Below, in pieces: positions 7,473-31,818 of a DNA stretch of 64,000 nucleotides (positions are counted from its first letter, which is position 1; each line of letters opens with the position of its first letter). The stretch is from Escherichia coli (GTDB lineage Bacteria; Pseudomonadota; Gammaproteobacteria; Enterobacterales; Enterobacteriaceae): assembly GCF_001677475.2 (NCBI RefSeq), contig NZ_CP015229.1. One strand, 5' to 3'. Both the position numbers and the translations under genes were made by a program. Under the pieces are notes generated by a model. It did no database searches. It saw only the letters and a list, made by a program, of their open reading frames with translations, and was not told where the DNA came from.

Positions 7473-7844
7473 GTGTCGCAAGATAACAACTTTAGCCAGG
7501 GGCCAGTCCCGCAGTCGGCGCGGAAAGGGGTATTGGCATTGACGTTCGTCATGCTGGGATTAACCTTCTTTTCCGCCAGTATGTGGACCGGCGGCACTCT
7601 CGGAACCGGTCTTAGCTATCATGATTTCTTCCTCGCAGTTCTCATCGGTAATCTTCTCCTCGGTATTTACACTTCATTTCTTGGTTACATTGGCGCAAAA
7701 ACCGGCCTGACCACTCATCTTCTTGCTCGCTTCTCGTTTGGTGTTAAAGGCTCATGGCTGCCTTCACTGCTGCTGGGCGGCACCCAGGTTGGCTGGTTTG
7801 GCGTTGGCGTGGCGATGTTTGCTATTCCGGTGGGCACCACATAG
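7473..7844 (+). pseudogene. codB: Cytosine permease CodB, 5' fragment (about 121 native codons) ending in 2 foreign codons and a stop created by the island junction
   Basis: Translation MSQDNNFSQGPVPQSARKG...VAMFAIPVG then TT*; the native continuation KATGLDIN... is found at 30919. Confidence 0.9.
7833..7836. other. Left island/chromosome junction (attL-like), GGCA shared with the right junction
   Basis: Native codB identity is lost after 7836; GGCA recurs at 30919-30922 where codB resumes. Confidence 0.6.
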
Positions 7845-7921
7845 GTCAATACCACCACAATAAAATTTTCCAATAAAAAAGCCCCATCACAAGGACAGGG
7901 CTATAGAATCAATTACTTACA

Positions 7922-8227
7922 TCACTTAATGTCTTTCATTCTACGAATACGCGCGCTTGCTTCGGATAGTTCTTCCAGTGTTACGTGATGTGCAAGCATA
8001 TAGACAGGAGTCGGATCGAATCCCTCGTGAGTATTGATCAGATGACTATTCCCGCCTTTAAACTCATCCTGTCCATCCCATATAGCGTACACGTCATCTT
8101 CTGCTACATAGATAATCAATCCAATAGGGGAGTCAGTAAGCTGGAAGATGCAGCCAGTAGAATCAATGCGATGTTCCCGAACGTCATCAACAGTTTCAAA
8201 GTCAATCTTAATATCTTTAGTCTTCAT
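7922..8227 (-). CDS. Hypothetical protein (101 aa), first gene inside the island's left end
   Basis: ORF only; no recognisable motif. Confidence 0.45.
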   Translation of the reverse strand: MKTKDIKIDFETVDDVREHRIDSTGCIFQLTDSPIGLIIYVAEDDVYAIWDGQDEFKGGNSHLINTHEGFDPTPVYMLAHHVTLEELSEASARIRRMKDIK

Positions 8228-23346: not shown

Positions 23347-26271
23347 ATGCAATCAATCCAATTTAAACGAACTAGTGTTTCTGGCAAAAAACCTACGCCG
23401 GAACAATTACAGGTCGGTGAGGTAGCAATCAACCTTAAAGACCATGTTATTTTCACCAAAGACCGAGATAATGCCGTAGTTCAAATCTCTGTTTCTCCTG
23501 AAACTCACACTGCATTAGAAACTAAAGTTAATGCGAATAAGAAAGAATTAGACGGCAAGATTACTACAAATCACAACAATATTAACGCTAAAGTAGATGA
23601 AATTAAACAAACTACTGATGCAACTATCGCAGCAAATCACGCAGAAATTAACAATAAAGTTGATGTGATTAAGCGCGAAACCGATGCGACAATCACGGCT
23701 AATAAAAATAAAGCTGCTTCCGACCTTGCTGGCGTTAAAGCTGAATTGTCCGATACCATCACCGCTAATAAAAATGCGGCTGCTGTAGCAACTCAGGAAC
23801 TGGACACCCGCATCAATAAAAAAGTTGATGATAACAAAGCTAAAACTGATGCAACTATCGCCAGCAATCACAAAGCAATCAATGACAAAGTTGATTTGAT
23901 TAAGGCCGAGACTGACCGCACTATCGCAGCAAATAAAACATATGCTGATACTCAGCTAACTAATGCTACTAATGATCTGAATACTGTCATTGCTGCAAAT
24001 AAAAAAGAAGCTGCTGATAGCGTGGCTGCATTAACTAAGACTGTAAACACTAAAGATACAGCGATTCATAGAAAAGTTGACGAGAATAAAGCACTGACCG
24101 ACGCGGAATTATCCCGTTTGTCTGGACGACTTGAAGATGTTGCTAGTATTGGTCAAAACCGAGGCGAATTGCCAGTAGATGCTAATCTTGATCACTATGG
24201 TCCACGTTCAGAATTTGCTGGTATTTGGGGTAAATCGACTTCAACGAATGCACAACCAAGTCACAATTTCCCAGAAGAAAATGCTGTAGGTGTTCTGGAA
24301 GTTTTCACAGGCGGTCAATTCTCTGGGACTCAGCGTTATACAACACGCTACGGTAATATCTACATTCGTTCTCTTACCGCTACATGGAATGGTACTGATG
24401 GTCCGTGGTCGCCGTGGCGCAATATTCAGATGGGTACACGTCCGCTTTCGTCAACCATCGATCTTAATGATTTGGGTGGAGTTGAGCATTTTGGTTTATG
24501 GCGCAATAGCTCTAACTCAATTGCGGCTCTAGAAAGGAATTTCCCAGAAGCTGGGGCGATGGCACAAGGTCTTTTAGAAGTCTTTGAGGGTGGCAACTAC
24601 TCCCGCACTCAGCGTTATACGACCAGAATGGGCGTTGTATATGTTCGCTGTCTTGCTGCTGCATGGGATGCTAGTGCTCCTAAATGGGGTCCGTGGCAAC
24701 AAGTAGGTAATGTAACACCGTCTACTTTCTATGACGGAAACCTGAACAACTTCAAAACACCTGGTTTATATAACATTTTAGGCACTGACAAAGTTACTAA
24801 CCGTCCTGTTGCAGAAGGTGTTCCGGTTGAGATGACCGCATTGCTTGAGGTTAAACAGCGTGCTTCCGGTGGCGCTATTTTCCAACGTTTCACTACCGCA
24901 GGAACGGGAACTACTACCCGTGGTCGTGTTTTTGAACGTGCAATGACAAATAATATCTGGGGAGATTGGCACGAAGTACATACATCATATTCTATGCCAA
25001 TTACTTTAGGTATCGGTGGGATTAAAACACAATTAGAATCTTTAGATTGGCAAACTTTTGATTTTGTTCCTGGTAGCATGTTTAGCGTGCCATTGAATAA
25101 AATTACCAATATGCCAGCAAAAATGGATTGGGGAACAATTGACGGAAACCTGATCATGTTTTCCGTTGGTCCTAGTGAACACACTAGCACAGGGCGTACT
25201 GTTCAGGTTTGGCGTGGTACTGTGTCTCAAGCAAACTACCGTTATTTTGTTGTTCGTGTATTTGGTAATTCAGGAGAGAGAACTTGCACCGTTCGCCGTG
25301 TTGCTCTTGAGGATGGTCGCCATACATGGACAGCACAACAAGATTTTAACGGCGCGGTTAACTTCGGTGGGTCTGTTGTTAACTTTAAAACAGCCACTAA
25401 CTTTAATAACACTACCAGTTTTAAAACAGAAGCTAAATTTCTTTCATCTAATGCATTCCGTATGTATGGCGGTAATTTTGGTGCATTCTTGCGTAATGAT
25501 GGTGAAAGTGTTTATCTTCTTTCCACCAATGAAAATGATAAAGATGGAAACTATAATACAAATAGACCTTTCCGGTATCAGTTAAAAACTGGTGATGTTA
25601 CTTTGGGTGGAACTAGCGGTGCTGATATTTTAAGATTAAAAAGTAGTTCTCTTGCTGCTACCTTTGGCGGTGATGTTAATTTAAGTAAAGGCGTATTGAC
25701 GTTTGAAGCTGGCGGTAAGCAATCTCGCGATTATTTCCGGTTTAATCATTGGGGTGATAGCAATAAAGCTCGCGATAACATCATTCAGTTAGAAGATAGT
25801 AAAGGTGCTCATTTTTCCACTGAACGCACACTGGCAACGGGTGCAATCAAAACTAAGTTCTTTGGTGAAGTTGAATCCGATGGTCGATTAACTATTAAAC
25901 GTCCGGGTGATGCTATTGTATTATCGACTACAGCTAGCAACTCGTTGCATATTCGTGGTGATGTTGGTGGAAGCAATAACTGGTATATTGGTAAAGGTGG
26001 TGCTGATAATTCACTAGCATTTTATAGCTACGCAACTAAAGCGGGTATACACATCACAAATAATGGTGAGATATCATTTGCCCCGCAAAATTTTGCTGGT
26101 ATTAACATTAACAAAGACCGTATCTATATCAATGCTACACAATGGATTGCTAATCATTCCGGTTCATGGGATGGACAGTGGAGAGAAGAAGCACCCATCT
26201 TTATTGATCAGGGTAGTGTTGGACAAGATAGCTATTATCCTCTTATTAAAGGACATAGCCAGATCACAGGT
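23347..26271 (+). CDS. Tail fibre protein (974 codons), 3' end interrupted by an IS3-family element
   Basis: Repeated KVDxIKxxTDATIxANxxxIN helical repeats; C-terminal GSNNWYIGKGGADN resembles T7 gp17 tip motif NNWYIGRGSDN; stop codon TGA is the first 3 bases of the IS. Confidence 0.75.
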
Positions 26272-26328
26272 TGAATCGCCACGGGTTTAACAGACACCTC
26301 AGAGTCATTTAAGATGGCTTAAAGAGAG

Positions 26329-26613
26329 GTGCCCATGAGCGGTAAGCGTTATCCCGAAGAGTTTAAAATTGAAGCAGTCAAACAGGTTGTTGATCGCGGT
26401 TATTCTGTTGCCAGCGTTGCAACACGTCTCGATATCACCACCCACAGCCTTTACGCCTGGATAAAGAAGTACGGTCCGGATTCTTCCGCTAATAAAGAAC
26501 AGTCAGATGCTCAGGCCGAGATCCGCCGTCTCCAGAAAGAGCTGAAGCGGGTTACCGACGAACGGGACATATTAAAAAAAGCCGCGGCGTACTTCGCAAA
26601 GCTGTCCGACTGA
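26329..26613 (+). CDS. IS3-family transposase OrfA (HTH, leucine-zipper region)
   Basis: 94 aa ORF MSGKRYPEEFKIEAVKQVV...; ends shortly after the A7 slippery site. Confidence 0.85.
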   Translation: MPMSGKRYPEEFKIEAVKQVVDRGYSVASVATRLDITTHSLYAWIKKYGPDSSANKEQSDAQAEIRRLQKELKRVTDERDILKKAAAYFAKLSD

Positions 26614-27482
26614 GGTACGCCTTTATCCGTGACAACACCTGTTGCTGGCCTGTTCGCCTGCTCTGTCGGGTGCTGGATGTTCATCCCAGTGGTTTTTACG
26701 CCTGGCTTCAGCAGCCGCATTCACAACGCCATCAGGCAGACCTGAGGCTGACAGGGCAGATTAAACAGTTCTGGCTGGAATCGGGATGCGTCTATGGTTA
26801 TCGCAAAATCCATCTGGATCTGCGGGACAGCGGGCAACAGTGCGGAGTGAACAGAGTCTGGCGACTGATGAAACGTGTCGGGATAAAGGCTCAGGTCGGA
26901 TACCGGAGCCCGCGGGCACGTAAAGGCGAGGCCAGTATCGTGTCGCCCAACAGGCTCCAGCGACAGTTCAATCCGGATGCTCCGGATAAGCGTTGGGTAA
27001 CGGACATAACCTACATCAGGACCCACGAAGGCTGGCTGTATCTTGCCGTGGTTGTTGATCTGTTCTCACGCAAAATTATCGGCTGGTCCATGCAATCCCG
27101 GATGACAAAGGACATTGTCCTGAACGCACTGCTGATGGCTGTATGGCGCCGTAATCCCCAAAAACAGGTGCTGGTTCATTCGGATCAGGGCAGTCAGTAC
27201 ACAAGCCATGAGTGGCAGTCGTTCCTGAAATCACACGGCCTGGAGGGCAGCATGAGCCGTCGCGGTAACTGCCATGATAATGCGGTTGCAGAAAGCTTTT
27301 TCCAGTTGTTGAAACGCGAACGGATAAAGAAAAAGATCTACGGAACGCGGGAAGAAGCCCGCAGCGATATTTTTGATTACATCGAAATGTTTTATAACAG
27401 TAAGCGTCGGCATGGTTCCAGCGATCAGATGTCACCGACAGAATATGAAAACCAGTATTATCAACGGCTCGGAAGTGTCTAG
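26575..27482 (+). CDS. IS3-family transposase OrfB (integrase catalytic DDE domain), expressed as OrfAB by -1 frameshift; ORF-track ATG at 26670
   Basis: -1 frame relative to orfA, open from the slippery site; motifs WVTDITYIRT, VVDLFSRKIIGW, HSDQGSQYTS, NAVAESFF. Confidence 0.85.
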
Positions 27483-27548: not shown

Positions 27549-27938
27549 ATGAGAGAGCAAACCAGAAAGAGCAACTTCACTCACCGATTAATCTTTACTC
27601 ATGAGTTTGAGGATGGTTGGAAAGCTGCCGATTTAGAGCATGAAGTAAAACAACGCTTCAAGACTCATGCCGCACCCTACAAAGATTTCAAGGATGGATG
27701 GTCGGAAACTCTGACTATCGATGAGTTGCCACACTTACAGCAACTGGTTTATGACTACCTAACCAATCAACCGGACGAGGCTAATATGTGGGTATCCCCG
27801 AAAGATGTATTTGATGACGATACATTCAAGCTACATACTCACTTCTACGGCATCAATAAACCGGAATTTTTCTGTATTGATGACGATAGTCCTGATTTAA
27901 TGGATGAATACTTTAATTCTCTCTTAGACGCTGCCTAA
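27549..27938 (+). CDS. Hypothetical protein (129 aa from first ATG; open frame extends upstream to the IS end at 27501), probably 5'-truncated; possible GIY-YIG/T5orf172-like domain
   Basis: Frame is open from 27501 (DKFIKFGITTRKPEERMREQ...); KFGITT...R...E pattern recalls the second motif of GIY-YIG/T5orf172 domains; weak, from memory only. Confidence 0.35.
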   Translation: MREQTRKSNFTHRLIFTHEFEDGWKAADLEHEVKQRFKTHAAPYKDFKDGWSETLTIDELPHLQQLVYDYLTNQPDEANMWVSPKDVFDDDTFKLHTHFYGINKPEFFCIDDDSPDLMDEYFNSLLDAA

Positions 27939-29709: not shown

Positions 29710-29757
29710 AAACGCCCCTACCGTGTATTATAACGATAGGGGCTAGGTGATTAAAGA

Positions 29758-30171
29758 TTAAAGAATTTCACGGCAGCTAATCAGGGTATAAGATGTATCA
29801 CCTTTTTTAACATCAAATATAGGAGCGCCATCTACAGAATGCAGATATTTGATGTAGGATTTACCATCTTCGGAACCATAATATTCTTCTTTCTCGTTCT
29901 TATCTTCTTTCAGTTTCGGGCTTTTGATTGTTCTATCAAATACCGGATCGTTGAAAGCAAATTGACTATTATCATCATTCACGCGAACTTTCACACCGAT
30001 AAAGCCACGGTATTTTCCAGACGGTGCATGATAATAACGGTCGCCATCACTCAGGTAGCGTGTATCATCTCCTTTATGTTCGAAGTAGGAATTACACACA
30101 TAATAGGTATTAGCATTAGCAGTACCAACCAAACCCATAGCAAGAACGATACCAGCGATAATCTTTTTCAT
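29758..30171 (-). CDS. Exported protein (137 aa) with N-terminal signal peptide
   Basis: MKKIIAGIVLAMGLVGTANA signal-like N-terminus; two Cys residues; no other motif. Confidence 0.5.
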   Translation of the reverse strand: MKKIIAGIVLAMGLVGTANANTYYVCNSYFEHKGDDTRYLSDGDRYYHAPSGKYRGFIGVKVRVNDDNSQFAFNDPVFDRTIKSPKLKEDKNEKEEYYGSEDGKSYIKYLHSVDGAPIFDVKKGDTSYTLISCREIL

Positions 30172-30216
30172 AGTAGAATTTCCTCTTGTTATTTGAATTA
30201 CGATATATTTATATCG

Positions 30217-30342
30217 TTAAAAGTTGATGCTGATTACCAGACCAAACACAACCGCACCAATCAAATCAATCCAGTTAATACACAATCCGCTATATTCTTT
30301 CTTGAATGTCTTAGATGAAATGCCATCATGAAATTGTTTCAT
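30217..30342 (-). CDS. Small membrane peptide (41 aa, MKQFHDGISSKTFKKEYSGLCINWIDLIGAVVFGLVISINF)
   Basis: Hand-translated; RBS GGGGTGA; C-terminal hydrophobic helix. Confidence 0.35.
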   Translation of the reverse strand: MKQFHDGISSKTFKKEYSGLCINWIDLIGAVVFGLVISINF

Positions 30343-30345
30343 TGC

Positions 30346-30426
30346 TCACCCCATACTAACGACAAGATAAGAAAGGCTGATCATAGTTGTGAGACTACCT
30401 CCCACGAATGAGATAAAAGCTAACAT
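30346..30426 (-). CDS. Small hydrophobic peptide (26 aa, MLAFISFVGGSLTTMISLSYLVVSMG)
   Basis: Hand-translated; RBS GGAGA 8 nt upstream; immediately precedes the 41-aa peptide. Confidence 0.3.
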   Translation of the reverse strand: MLAFISFVGGSLTTMISLSYLVVSMG

Positions 30427-30483
30427 GTTTGATTCTCCAGTTTAAAAAGCGGTGGGAATTGCACCCACCAAATTAGAAATTAA

Positions 30484-30891
30484 TTAAGCGCGAACGATGG
30501 TCAGAGTATCCAGCAAACCTTTTTCGTATAATTCGAAACACGTTTTATATTGCTCAATCTTCCAACCGTAGCGGGTGATCTTATTCAGTAGAACAATCGC
30601 GCTACTTTCATCCAGATATTGCCCCTGCTTACCGATTACATAAGTCTCACGATTCAGCTTTAACTTACGGAAACCTTTAACACCTAATTCCTTAGCCACC
30701 GCTTTAATCTCTTTAATCTCACCTTCTGCGGCTACATATTCAGCGTCGATAATCTCAGGTGATGATCTCAGTGCTACCAGAACTAAGGCCATTGCTTCTT
30801 CTTCGGTACGAGCAACACCAGCTTTCTCGAAAGTCATCTCACCAAATTTACGAATCATGATATTGAACATTGTCTGTATTCCTGCGTTCAA
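30484..30891 (-). CDS. Hypothetical protein (135 aa; alternative start at MFNIMIRK), last gene before the right junction
   Basis: ORF only; start faces the right island boundary. Confidence 0.45.
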   Translation of the reverse strand: MNAGIQTMFNIMIRKFGEMTFEKAGVARTEEEAMALVLVALRSSPEIIDAEYVAAEGEIKEIKAVAKELGVKGFRKLKLNRETYVIGKQGQYLDESSAIVLLNKITRYGWKIEQYKTCFELYEKGLLDTLTIVRA

Positions 30892-30912
30892 ACTTAATGT
30901 GGTTGGAATGAT

Positions 30913-31818
30913 ATGTTAGGCAAGGCAACCGGGCTGGATATTAATATGCTGATTGCAGTCTCCGGTTTACTGATGACCGTCACCGTCTTCTTTGGCATTT
31001 CGGCGCTGACGGTTCTTTCGGTGATTGCGGTTCCGGCTATCGCCTGCCTGGGCGGTTATTCCGTGTGGCTGGCCGTTAACGGCATGGGCGGCCTGGACGC
31101 ATTAAAAGCGGTCGTTCCCGCACAACCGTTAGATTTCAATGTCGCGCTGGCGCTGGTTGTGGGGTCATTTATCAGTGCGGGCACGCTCACCGCTGACTTT
31201 GTCCGGTTTGGTCGTAATGCCAAACTGGCGGTGCTGGTGGCGATGGTGGCCTTTTTCCTCGGCAACTCGTTGATGTTTATTTTCGGTGCAGCGGGCGCGG
31301 CGGCACTGGGGATGGCGGATATCTCTGATGTGATGATTGCTCAGGGTCTGCTGCTGCCTGCGATTGTGGTGCTGGGGCTGAATATCTGGACCACCAACGA
31401 TAACGCACTCTATGCGTCGGGTTTAGGTTTCGCCAACATTACCGGTATGTCGAGTAAAACCCTTTCGGTGATTAACGGTATTATCGGTACGGTCTGCGCA
31501 CTATGGCTGTATAACAATTTTGTCGGCTGGCTGACCTTCCTTTCGGCAGCTATTCCTCCGGTAGGGGGCGTGATCATCGCTGACTATCTGATGAACCGTC
31601 GCCGCTATGAGCACTTTGCGACCACGCGTATGATGAGTGTCAATTGGGTGGCGATTCTGGCGGTCGCCTTGGGGATTGCCGCAGGCCACTGGTTACCGGG
31701 TATTGTTCCGGTCAACGCGGTATTAGGTGGCGCGCTGAGCTATCTGATCCTTAACCCGATTTTGAATCGTAAAACGACAGCAGCAATGACGCATGTGGAG
31801 GCTAACAGTGTCGAATAA
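30913..31818 (+). pseudogene. codB: Cytosine permease CodB, 3' fragment (fortuitous ATG at 30913 created by the junction)
   Basis: Translation (ML)GKATGLDINMLIAVSGLLMTVTVFFG... matches the CodB C-terminal two thirds. Confidence 0.9.
30919..30922. other. Right island/chromosome junction (attR-like), GGCA
   Basis: Native codB reading resumes at 30919 (GKATGLDIN...); imperfect inverted symmetry between the inner island ends (ACCACCACAAT at left vs reverse-complement CCAACCACATT at right). Confidence 0.6.

Follow-up and report, generated by a model that had tools for sequence, protein, structure and literature searches.

What kind of genes lie between the integrase of a prophage and its attachment junction: exchangeable cargo, or a fixed part of the integration module? 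The question is raised by a stretch of 64,000 nucleotides from Escherichia coli (contig NZ_CP015229.1 of RefSeq assembly GCF_001677475.2; the whole stretch is called the window below), in which a prophage of ~23 kb sits inside codB and four minus-strand open reading frames (ORFs), of 135, 26, 41 and 137 amino acids (aa), lie between the gene for a large serine integrase (int) and attR, the right prophage junction. A previous reading of the region from its letters alone (the sequence-only reading) had regarded all four as accessory cargo "downstream of the integrase". The ORFs are found where that reading placed them and attR is real; the genes, however, lie upstream of int in the direction of transcription, their minus-strand order being attR, 128-aa gene (a re-started form of the 135-aa ORF, see below), terminator T1, 26-aa gene, 41-aa gene, a variable slot here filled by the 137-aa gene, terminator T2 and int (Table 1). 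The main interest of the locus is in the unannotated, integrase-linked peptide pair and in a promoter-like sequence across attP, the 137-aa protein being less notable. Our overall explanation, to which we give an even chance, is that the locus encodes envelope-acting proteins made while the phage DNA is circular, the module being read from a promoter at attP.

Two small membrane proteins missed by annotation

The 26-aa peptide (MLAFISFVGGSLTTMISLSYLVVSMG) is uncharged and hydrophobic throughout (grand average of hydropathy, GRAVY, 1.62), with a single predicted helix. The 41-aa peptide begins with a basic, hydrophilic and invariant N-terminal 15-mer (MKQFHDGISSKTFKK) followed by one predicted C-terminal transmembrane helix. 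The stop codon of the 26-aa ORF is 3 nt ahead of the start of the 41-aa gene, whose purine-rich ribosome-binding site (RBS) overlaps the 3' end of the 26-aa ORF. In most RefSeq records no gene is annotated in the 312-bp interval that holds both frames, and ORFs of such sizes are common by chance in AT-rich DNA; both facts would suit a non-coding interval (a leader, a small RNA or a regulatory spacer) in which the ORFs are chance frames.

Comparison of 21 distinct sequences of this interval makes the non-coding explanation barely conceivable. Both frames are open in 21/21. Third codon positions account for 7 of the 9 variable sites of the 26-aa ORF (P=0.008) and for 13 of the 22 of the 41-aa ORF (P=0.012), and this bias is confined to the proposed frames. 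The ratio of nonsynonymous to synonymous differences per site (pN/pS) is 0.18 and 0.11, respectively (0.1-0.5 over all comparisons), and the sole length change among the 21 sequences is an in-frame 3-nt indel, which also brings AGC -> TCG with the serine kept. The copies from Salmonella, at near-saturated synonymous divergence (pS 0.56-0.87), still keep the frames: the first peptide has exactly 26 codons in four diverged versions (e.g. MSLLLSFVGSTVLTISGFVYMVVNAV), the second has 40 codons, and the peptide genes overlap their neighbours by ATGA. The 15 residues of MKQFHDGISSKTFKK are identical between E. coli and Salmonella despite ~8 nucleotide differences, including a TCT/AGC serine switch. 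The 41-aa protein has also been predicted by independent gene callers, in 10 clusters that come without exception from Escherichia or Salmonella, and Rfam (E<=1) gave no match in the interval except a chance eukaryotic long non-coding RNA.

The excess of third-position changes, the low pN/pS, and the frame and length kept at near-saturated divergence (together with the start/stop overlaps) indicate that the 26-aa and 41-aa ORFs are real protein-coding genes under purifying selection. The sequence-only reading, which had picked them out by their RBSs and hydrophobic helices as easily missed, was thus right on this point. Since the two genes are adjacent or overlapping, they are probably translationally coupled. 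Both products are predicted to be single-pass inner-membrane proteins, with the invariant N-terminus of the 41-aa peptide probably staying in the cytoplasm. Standard annotation has thereby missed two conserved small membrane proteins that occur in ~1% of complete E. coli genomes and in Salmonella.

In E. coli the two peptide genes share one frame, split by TGA-GCA (30343-30348); in Salmonella their frames differ. One database sequence (P0066, from an ENA contig) has TGG instead of TGA, giving a 68-aa two-helix fusion, and stop-codon read-through could yield the same 68-aa fusion at low level.

The sequence-only reading had further proposed that the peptides could be membrane-active, toxin-like or holin-like. 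They are indeed very small and very hydrophobic, and in two relatives (loci L015 and L044) the unrelated ORF of 29 or 25 codons that takes the place of the 26-aa gene is hydrophobic as well, which is what one would expect of membrane-damaging toxins (type I toxins or abortive-infection effectors) or of holin-like lysis proteins. However, neither peptide can be assigned to the holins or to type I toxin-antitoxin systems of the Hok, Ldr, Ibs and TisB kinds: there is no toxin or holin family match and no PHROG lysis match, Rfam reports no antisense RNA family or Hok/Ldr/Ibs-type element, and both peptides end with hydrophobic residues (…ISINF, …VVSMG), without the charged C-terminus typical of holins. 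The genes are part of a co-directional, coupled operon with int. The endolysin of the relatives (D-Ala-D-Ala carboxypeptidase family) is encoded on the opposite strand beyond int. Finally, purifying selection has kept the pair intact in ~1% of complete E. coli genomes, this decayed prophage included. We therefore consider a toxic or lytic role very improbable. Searches of PHROGs, NCBIfam, PADLOC and Pfam gave no match for the 26-aa, 41-aa and 137-aa proteins, and tblastn of the 137-aa and 41-aa proteins against phages gave nothing credible.

Conserved backbone and swappable slot

Comparison of ~40 loci revealed a common plan: att junction, first gene(s), 26-aa gene, 41-aa gene, slot, T2, int. 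Every element whose recombinase is at least 68% identical to the one of the window has the peptide pair, and in every context examined the pair lies a short way upstream of such a recombinase. Integrases at 33-36% identity have no such pair alongside; E. coli and Salmonella elements with an integrase of this clade are the only ones in which it occurs. By this comparison the two peptides are a conserved backbone of the integrase module, and not cargo.

The 128-aa gene also appears to be largely backbone. It is common, not universal, being absent from some relatives that keep the integrase; Salmonella has only the C-terminal ~80-aa domain of the protein, some E. coli relatives have an unrelated 89-aa gene in its place, and others have an extra 90-aa gene upstream and an ORF lengthened to 145 aa.

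The slot, by comparison of the same loci, holds cargo, the 137-aa protein being one of several occupants: a 137- or 139-aa protein, an 81-aa protein, a 113-aa membrane-anchored coiled-coil protein together with the 81-aa one, a 348-aa endonuclease of phrog_681, or nothing. The idea of the sequence-only reading that the region is cargo thus holds for the 137-aa gene, which is variably present and whose product is predicted to be exported, and fails for the peptides and largely for the 128-aa gene. Genes beside an integrase are accordingly not all interchangeable: here a fixed backbone carries defined insertion slots. In Salmonella, inserts are found before or between the peptide genes (a lipoprotein, a 75-aa protein with a signal peptide and a 62-aa protein), joined to their neighbours by overlapping stop and start codons. 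A signal peptide, a membrane anchor or a lipobox is found in most products of the variable positions. A PADLOC search with nine variable-position proteins of the relatives gave only weak matches, of the 113-aa protein (E ~5e-4, in its coiled-coil region).

The 81-aa slot protein (L036-L039, L005, L007 and L010), otherwise unrelated to the 137-aa protein, has the same RBS, and over 23 residues its signal peptide is 83% identical to that of the 137-aa protein (window positions 30103-30171). This sharing of the RBS and of a nearly identical signal peptide suggests that slot cassettes are swapped by recombination at T2 and inside the stretch coding for the signal peptide. A conserved palindrome marks the upstream boundary of the slot. 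Elements of E. coli and of Salmonella that have a slot gene keep it, and in locus L045 both of its arms are changed (CGTTATAAATATAACG) with the symmetry kept. Its role could be that of an operator, of an RNA hairpin or of a recombination boundary.

These data bear on the possibility that the genes are morons, i.e. genes for lysogenic conversion, exclusion or defence that the prophage would express in the lysogen and that would modify the host or protect it. Accessory genes are classically found beside int and att, the 137-aa gene is present in some relatives only and has a terminator after it, most slot occupants are envelope proteins, and across attP some relatives carry a gene that RefSeq calls 'lysozyme inhibitor LprI family protein'. 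On the other side, the variable presence expected of morons is seen for the 137-aa gene and not for the 26-aa and 41-aa genes, which like the 128-aa gene are conserved backbone, and the inserts are joined by start/stop overlap instead of bearing their own promoters. PADLOC, PHROG and NCBIfam give no functional match. Lysogenic conversion, as proposed by the sequence-only reading, also requires expression in the lysogen: T2 would provide the terminator of an autonomous unit, but a simple consensus scan of the window finds no promoter-like site upstream, ahead of any of the genes in the integrated state. In every relative, moreover, the first gene begins ~50 nt from the crossover. We regard the moron explanation as unlikely, and the genes are probably not constitutively expressed lysogenic-conversion genes.

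A candidate promoter across attP

Between the att junction and the start of the first module gene there are 35-60 nt in every relative, too few to hold a promoter borne by the prophage. When the two prophage ends are joined, the sense strand reads T0 - ATTGTGGTGGTA TTGACC TATGTGG-TGCC-TAACA TATCAT TCC... - RBS - ATG. The reconstructed attP of the window thus contains TTGACC-16-TATCAT, a 10/12 match to the sigma-70 consensus, with the crossover core within the spacer. After integration the two hexamers are separated (Table 1), and the -35 position in the integrated window is taken by unrelated codB sequence. For the integrated state the simple scan found no sigma-70-like promoter before any of the four genes, and only with the ends joined does a complete predicted promoter face them.

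Intact attP is known from two Logan assemblies, L043 and L044, where TTGACA-17-TATCAT (11/12) and TTGACT-17-TATCAT (10/12), respectively, are the top promoter-like sites of the locus. The two prophage ends are joined in L043, as proved by the orthologue of the left-end 183-aa gene of the window on the far side of its attP. The prophage type inserted in hicB reconstructs to TTGACT-18-TATCAT, and on other attR sides the -10 box is TATCAT, TATAAT or TATTAT, with the critical positions kept. We infer that a predicted sigma-70 promoter spans attP and that integration would split its -35 from its -10 element.

The joined ends are flanked by terminators. T0 ends the left-end 101-aa ORF just before attP in the circle, and its hairpin also precedes attP in the H1-type prophage and in L044. 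T1 recurs in the E. coli relatives, its stem bearing a compensatory change in L044. Salmonella lacks this terminator, and its genes are translationally coupled. T2 keeps the TATAAT of its loop, and covariation is seen in its stem in Salmonella (L046 and L047, immediately before int). A promoter using this loop as its -10 box scores 10/12 and is the second best of the locus in L043 (2848-2889) and L044 (1368-1408); in the window its -35 box is poor. It may be an activator-dependent int promoter nested in an insulating terminator. In locus L075 a different terminator replaces T2. Visual inspection around T1 and the palindrome gave other candidate internal promoters, which were too weak to be proposed.

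Our overall explanation can now be put together. The module would be transcribed from a sigma-70 promoter with its -35 element in the P arm and its -10 element in the P' arm of attP, which would be whole only on circular phage DNA, after infection or excision, and which integration would split. T1 and T2 would attenuate read-through, and int might have a weak promoter of its own inside T2. The products would act on the cell envelope while the genome is circular, for instance by blocking the entry of competing phages. The envelope/exclusion function, argued by analogy, is the least certain step. If it is true that the peptides or the exported barrel (see below) block superinfection, they would be new exclusion determinants.

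Several observations weigh against this explanation. As for the promoter, one Salmonella attR (L046) has a poor -10 box, TACTCT; both hexamers coincide with the symmetric attP arms (TTGACCTATGT vs ACATATCAT), and their conservation could reflect integrase binding instead of promoter function; and so crude a scan would miss weak or activator-dependent promoters in the integrated state. In the E. coli type, T1 lies between the attP promoter and the peptide genes, and expression of the peptides and of the 137-aa protein therefore needs read-through or a promoter missed by the scan. As for the function, the 348-aa endonuclease and the 62-aa insert are cytoplasmic, so the slot is not exclusively one for envelope proteins; the exclusion role is argued only from predicted localisation and analogy; and searches of PHROG, NCBIfam and PADLOC, and tblastn against phages, found no homology to known exclusion proteins.

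The same promoter layout can be read in another way, with the peptides as lysogeny-establishment factors made together with the integrase on infection (for instance, membrane-anchored modulators of the FtsH protease like CIII of phage lambda) and the 128-aa protein as a regulator that reports the circular state. For this possibility the comparison is lambda pL (cIII...xis-int) and pI/CII. The strict linkage of the peptides to the integrase and not to the cargo, the predicted promoter complete only on circular DNA, the invariant, presumably cytoplasmic tail of the 41-aa peptide, and a T2 promoter with a perfect -10 and a poor -35, as for an activator-dependent int promoter, would all agree with it. 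However, neither CIII nor any other regulator turned up as a sequence match in PHROG and NCBIfam. T4-like phages, which are strictly lytic, also have the C-terminal domain of the 128-aa protein on its own, some relatives do without the 128-aa gene, and the argument is one of analogy throughout. We find this explanation improbable.

With envelope-acting proteins made from circular DNA kept as the preferred explanation, one can speculate further that the peptides are an undescribed, integrase-linked membrane-peptide pair, that recombination itself switches an envelope/exclusion programme off on integration and on at excision, and that the operon is a landing pad for envelope genes acquired via start/stop-overlap recombination. 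This fuller scheme is tentative, and we think it possible rather than likely. The locus offers a testable case of a serine-integrase attP doubling as a promoter, with integration and excision rewiring transcription. Large serine integrases are widespread engineering tools, and promoter activity of attP and co-evolving small proteins would be of practical interest.

The exported 137-aa protein

The 137-aa protein, for which the sequence-only reading had proposed a signal peptide, indeed begins with the sequence MKKIIAGIVLAMGLVGTANA followed by N (30112-30171), which has the make-up of a Sec (type I) signal peptide: a KK n-region, a hydrophobic core, an A-N-A cleavage motif and no lipobox. The layout is MKK, IIAGIVLAMGLVGT and ANA followed by N, with a maximum Kyte-Doolittle (KD) hydropathy over 17 residues of 1.95, and the motif is invariant in 5 family members. 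The mature part has 117 aa, with Cys26 and Cys133 invariant in all full-length members. The family is very small: 5.8 billion proteins contain five clusters of it, and when 1.84 billion representatives were searched exhaustively with a profile, 7 matched, 5 of which are family members or fragments; the two others are giant repeat proteins, whose weak matches were judged compositional. A plus-strand ORF of 159 aa (29839-30318) overlaps the gene. Among 14 distinct relatives it is broken in 4, and the 137-aa frame is open in 14/14, which marks the plus-strand frame as a shadow ORF.

The AlphaFold model of the mature part is an eight- to nine-stranded beta-barrel (predicted local distance difference test, pLDDT, 75; predicted template modelling score, pTM, 0.72). 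The first and the last strands close the modelled barrel and each bears one of the invariant cysteines, which could form a Cys26-Cys133 disulfide. The signal peptide and the model together suggest that the protein is Sec-exported and folds in the periplasm as a small beta-barrel. Foldseek returned lipocalin-like folds only, and the barrel is generic. Membership in the MliC/PliC family (PF09864) was rejected (no Pfam match at E<=10; hhalign against three MliC/PliC sequences, probability 0.2%); the likeness to lysozyme inhibitors is thus at the level of the predicted fold only.

The most conserved segment, residues 63-88 (29908-29985; VKVRVNDDNSQFAFNDPVFDKTI), resembles the periplasmic domain of ExbD (VYLSVKADNSMFIGNDPVTDETM). 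With E=0.64 in a profile search of PDB sequences, this was treated as chance, and it is kept merely as a lead to possible interference with the TonB system.

The 128-aa protein

The sequence-only reading had described the first gene after attP as encoding 135 aa. That ORF exists (30484-30891), but its TTG start at 30891 lies inside the attP arm and has no RBS. The true start is most likely the ATG at 30870, giving 128 aa, since an RBS is present there and since 128 aa is the RefSeq length in the relatives.

The C-terminal ~80-aa alpha/beta domain belongs to phrog_14908, the sole match of the protein in PHROGs, NCBIfam, PADLOC and Pfam. The ~50 N-terminal residues are modelled with low confidence, and the model of the C-terminal domain, a small alpha/beta structure, has no informative structural neighbours. 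Small proteins encoded in the early region of RB49-like T4 phages share 49% identity with this domain. A free-standing gene of ~83 aa codes for it in RB49 (RB49p190; L003, 2998-3249) and in 56 other T4-like genomes, the Krischvirus copies being located in an early region of small ORFs near DNA methyltransferase and alt genes. The domain, as judged by this similarity, is common to strictly lytic and temperate coliphages.

A role of the 128-aa protein as a recombination directionality factor was also considered and discarded. It matches no known family of such factors, only phrog_14908; its gene lies ~50 nt from the junction without a prophage-borne promoter, and it is absent in some integrase-bearing relatives. 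The names found in public records for the 128/145-aa protein, 'beta/alpha barrel domain-containing protein' and 'type I 3-dehydroquinate dehydratase' (P0007, P0014; H2, H22), can hardly be right for a protein of its size and predicted fold and probably arose as annotation artefacts. None of the libraries, PHROG, NCBIfam and PADLOC among those searched, gives a function for any of the four proteins.

The prophage and its junctions

The host context in the window is the E. coli prpE-codBA-cynRTSX-lacAYZI region, in which an island of low G+C content (~40-45%) covers roughly 7.8-30.9 kb and contains genes for a large terminase subunit, portal, protease-capsid and tail fibre, and a serine recombinase. 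The exact junctions were obtained by base-by-base alignment of both borders to an intact codB (L040). The attL sequence is ...GGTGGGCA/CCACATAGG and the attR sequence ...ATGTTAGGCA/AGGCAACC. Only GGCA is common to the two and long direct repeats are absent; such a short core is the expected signature of a serine integrase.

Table 1. Features of the prophage and its integrase module (positions in the window)
Feature	Position	Strand	Remarks
attL crossover core GGCA	7833-7836		left end, partner of attR core
-35 hexamer TTGACC	7844-7849	-	left at attL after integration, 23 kb away
Terminator T0	7880-7902	-	hairpin + T6; ends 101-aa left-end ORF (7922-8227) just before attP in the circle
IS3 copy	26329-27482		interrupts 3' end of tail-fibre gene (23347-26274)
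Large serine recombinase (integrase), 560 aa	28012-29694	-	from ATG 29694; phrog_95 integrase, 1e-55
Intrinsic terminator T2	29714-29743	-	between slot and int; loop carries TATAAT
137-aa slot gene	29758-30171	-	RBS GAGGA 9 nt from ATG
Conserved palindrome CGATATAAATATATCG	30201-30216		directly past 41-aa stop, upstream boundary of slot
41-aa gene	30217-30342	-	hydrophobic C-terminal segment, KD 2.18
26-aa gene	30346-30426	-	RBS GGAG 8 nt from ATG
Intrinsic terminator T1	30441-30470	-	7-bp stem + T-tract; directly before 26-aa RBS
128-aa gene	30484-30870	-	first after attP; ATG 30870, RBS AGGA 9 nt upstream
-10 hexamer TATCAT	30908-30913	-	half remaining with the operon after integration
attR crossover core GGCA	30919-30922		right prophage end, inside codB

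Related DNA is present in 57/5,426 complete E. coli genomes (about 1%; 88-95% identity) and at the ends of ~30 IMG/VR proviruses, of which one (L004) is identical to the window. RefSeq calls the counterparts of the integrase in relatives 'recombinase family protein', and the Salmonella homologues contain Resolvase, Recombinase and Zn_ribbon_recom domains. No cultured phage relatives were found at the DNA level, the identity of the integrase to that of any sequenced phage is at most ~32%, and literature searches found no account of this prophage family. The prophage has ~23 kb, compared with 30-38 kb in most relatives (one other provirus has ~20 kb), its tail-fibre gene is interrupted by a copy of the insertion sequence (IS) IS3, and no endolysin gene is found ahead of int; on the strength of these features it is probably defective and immobilised.

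Beyond int, a plus-strand ORF of 129 aa (27549-27938) matches solely the C-terminal end of phrog_681 (endonuclease) and looks like the remnant of an accessory gene; phrog_681 fills the slot as a 348-aa gene in L075. A second variable slot is found on the same strand at the other prophage end, just before attP. Its occupants are, in the window, a 101-aa ORF without any match (7922-8227, minus strand), and elsewhere a RefSeq 'lysozyme inhibitor LprI family protein' in strain E275a (L041, 9661-10455) and a 190-aa C-terminally anchored protein in L043 (1046-1618). The Salmonella elements (L042, L045-L049) occupy one shared site, by a 107-116-aa gene near csgG, a DUF1097 gene and a narJ-like gene, and carry a UvsW-like helicase gene and a CapR-like gene beyond int.

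Comparison with known systems

The locus combines known kinds of arrangement, an int-proximal accessory region and a state-dependent promoter, with protein families that are uncharacterised. Accessory loci and morons near int include HK97 gp15, lambda bor/lom and lactococcal sie2009, the last between int and the repressor gene. The present locus resembles them in its position beside int/att, its variable content among near-identical phages, its small envelope products and the terminator after the slot. Unlike them, it has no autonomous promoter that we could find, its inserts are spliced into the operon via start/stop overlap, two of its genes are invariant backbone, and its products have no sequence kinship to known moron products.

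The closest counterparts of the envelope role proposed here are Imm, an inner-membrane protein, and Sp, a periplasmic inhibitor of the tail lysozyme, which together form the exclusion pair of phage T4. As predicted for our locus, small inner-membrane proteins are combined there with a small secreted periplasmic protein and made early on a free genome, and the C-terminal domain of the 128-aa protein has homologues in the early regions of T4-like Krischvirus. However, no sequence similarity to Imm or Sp was detected, and exclusion by this locus is proposed by analogy. The solved structure of Sp is helical, in contrast to the modelled beta-barrel of the 137-aa protein. The latter also differs from MliC/PliC (PDB 2f09, 3f6z, 3oe3, 4mir) in being ~35 residues longer and in having no profile match to them.

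As regards the promoter, circularised IS elements such as IS911, IS2 and IS30 have junction promoters. In the integrative and conjugative elements (ICEs) ICEKp1, ICEclc and ICEEc1, a far-end promoter drives int only in the excised circle (PMC13023037). The layout predicted here is similar in that the promoter of one end reaches the genes of the other end only when the ends are joined, and integration and excision therefore act as a transcriptional switch. The differences are that our element is a tailed phage with a large serine integrase, that the -35 and -10 elements of the predicted promoter flank the crossover dinucleotide inside attP, and that terminators lie between the attP promoter and int. 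The attP promoter therefore probably serves mainly the first gene(s) after attP.

A further parallel is the 'integration-dependent immunity' of mycobacteriophages, a term that occurs in PMC9262239. In both cases the position of attP ties gene expression to the physical state of the genome. In the mycobacteriophages attP lies inside the repressor gene, and integration truncates the coding sequence and activates the repressor, whereas here integration would part the elements of a promoter and turn the operon off.

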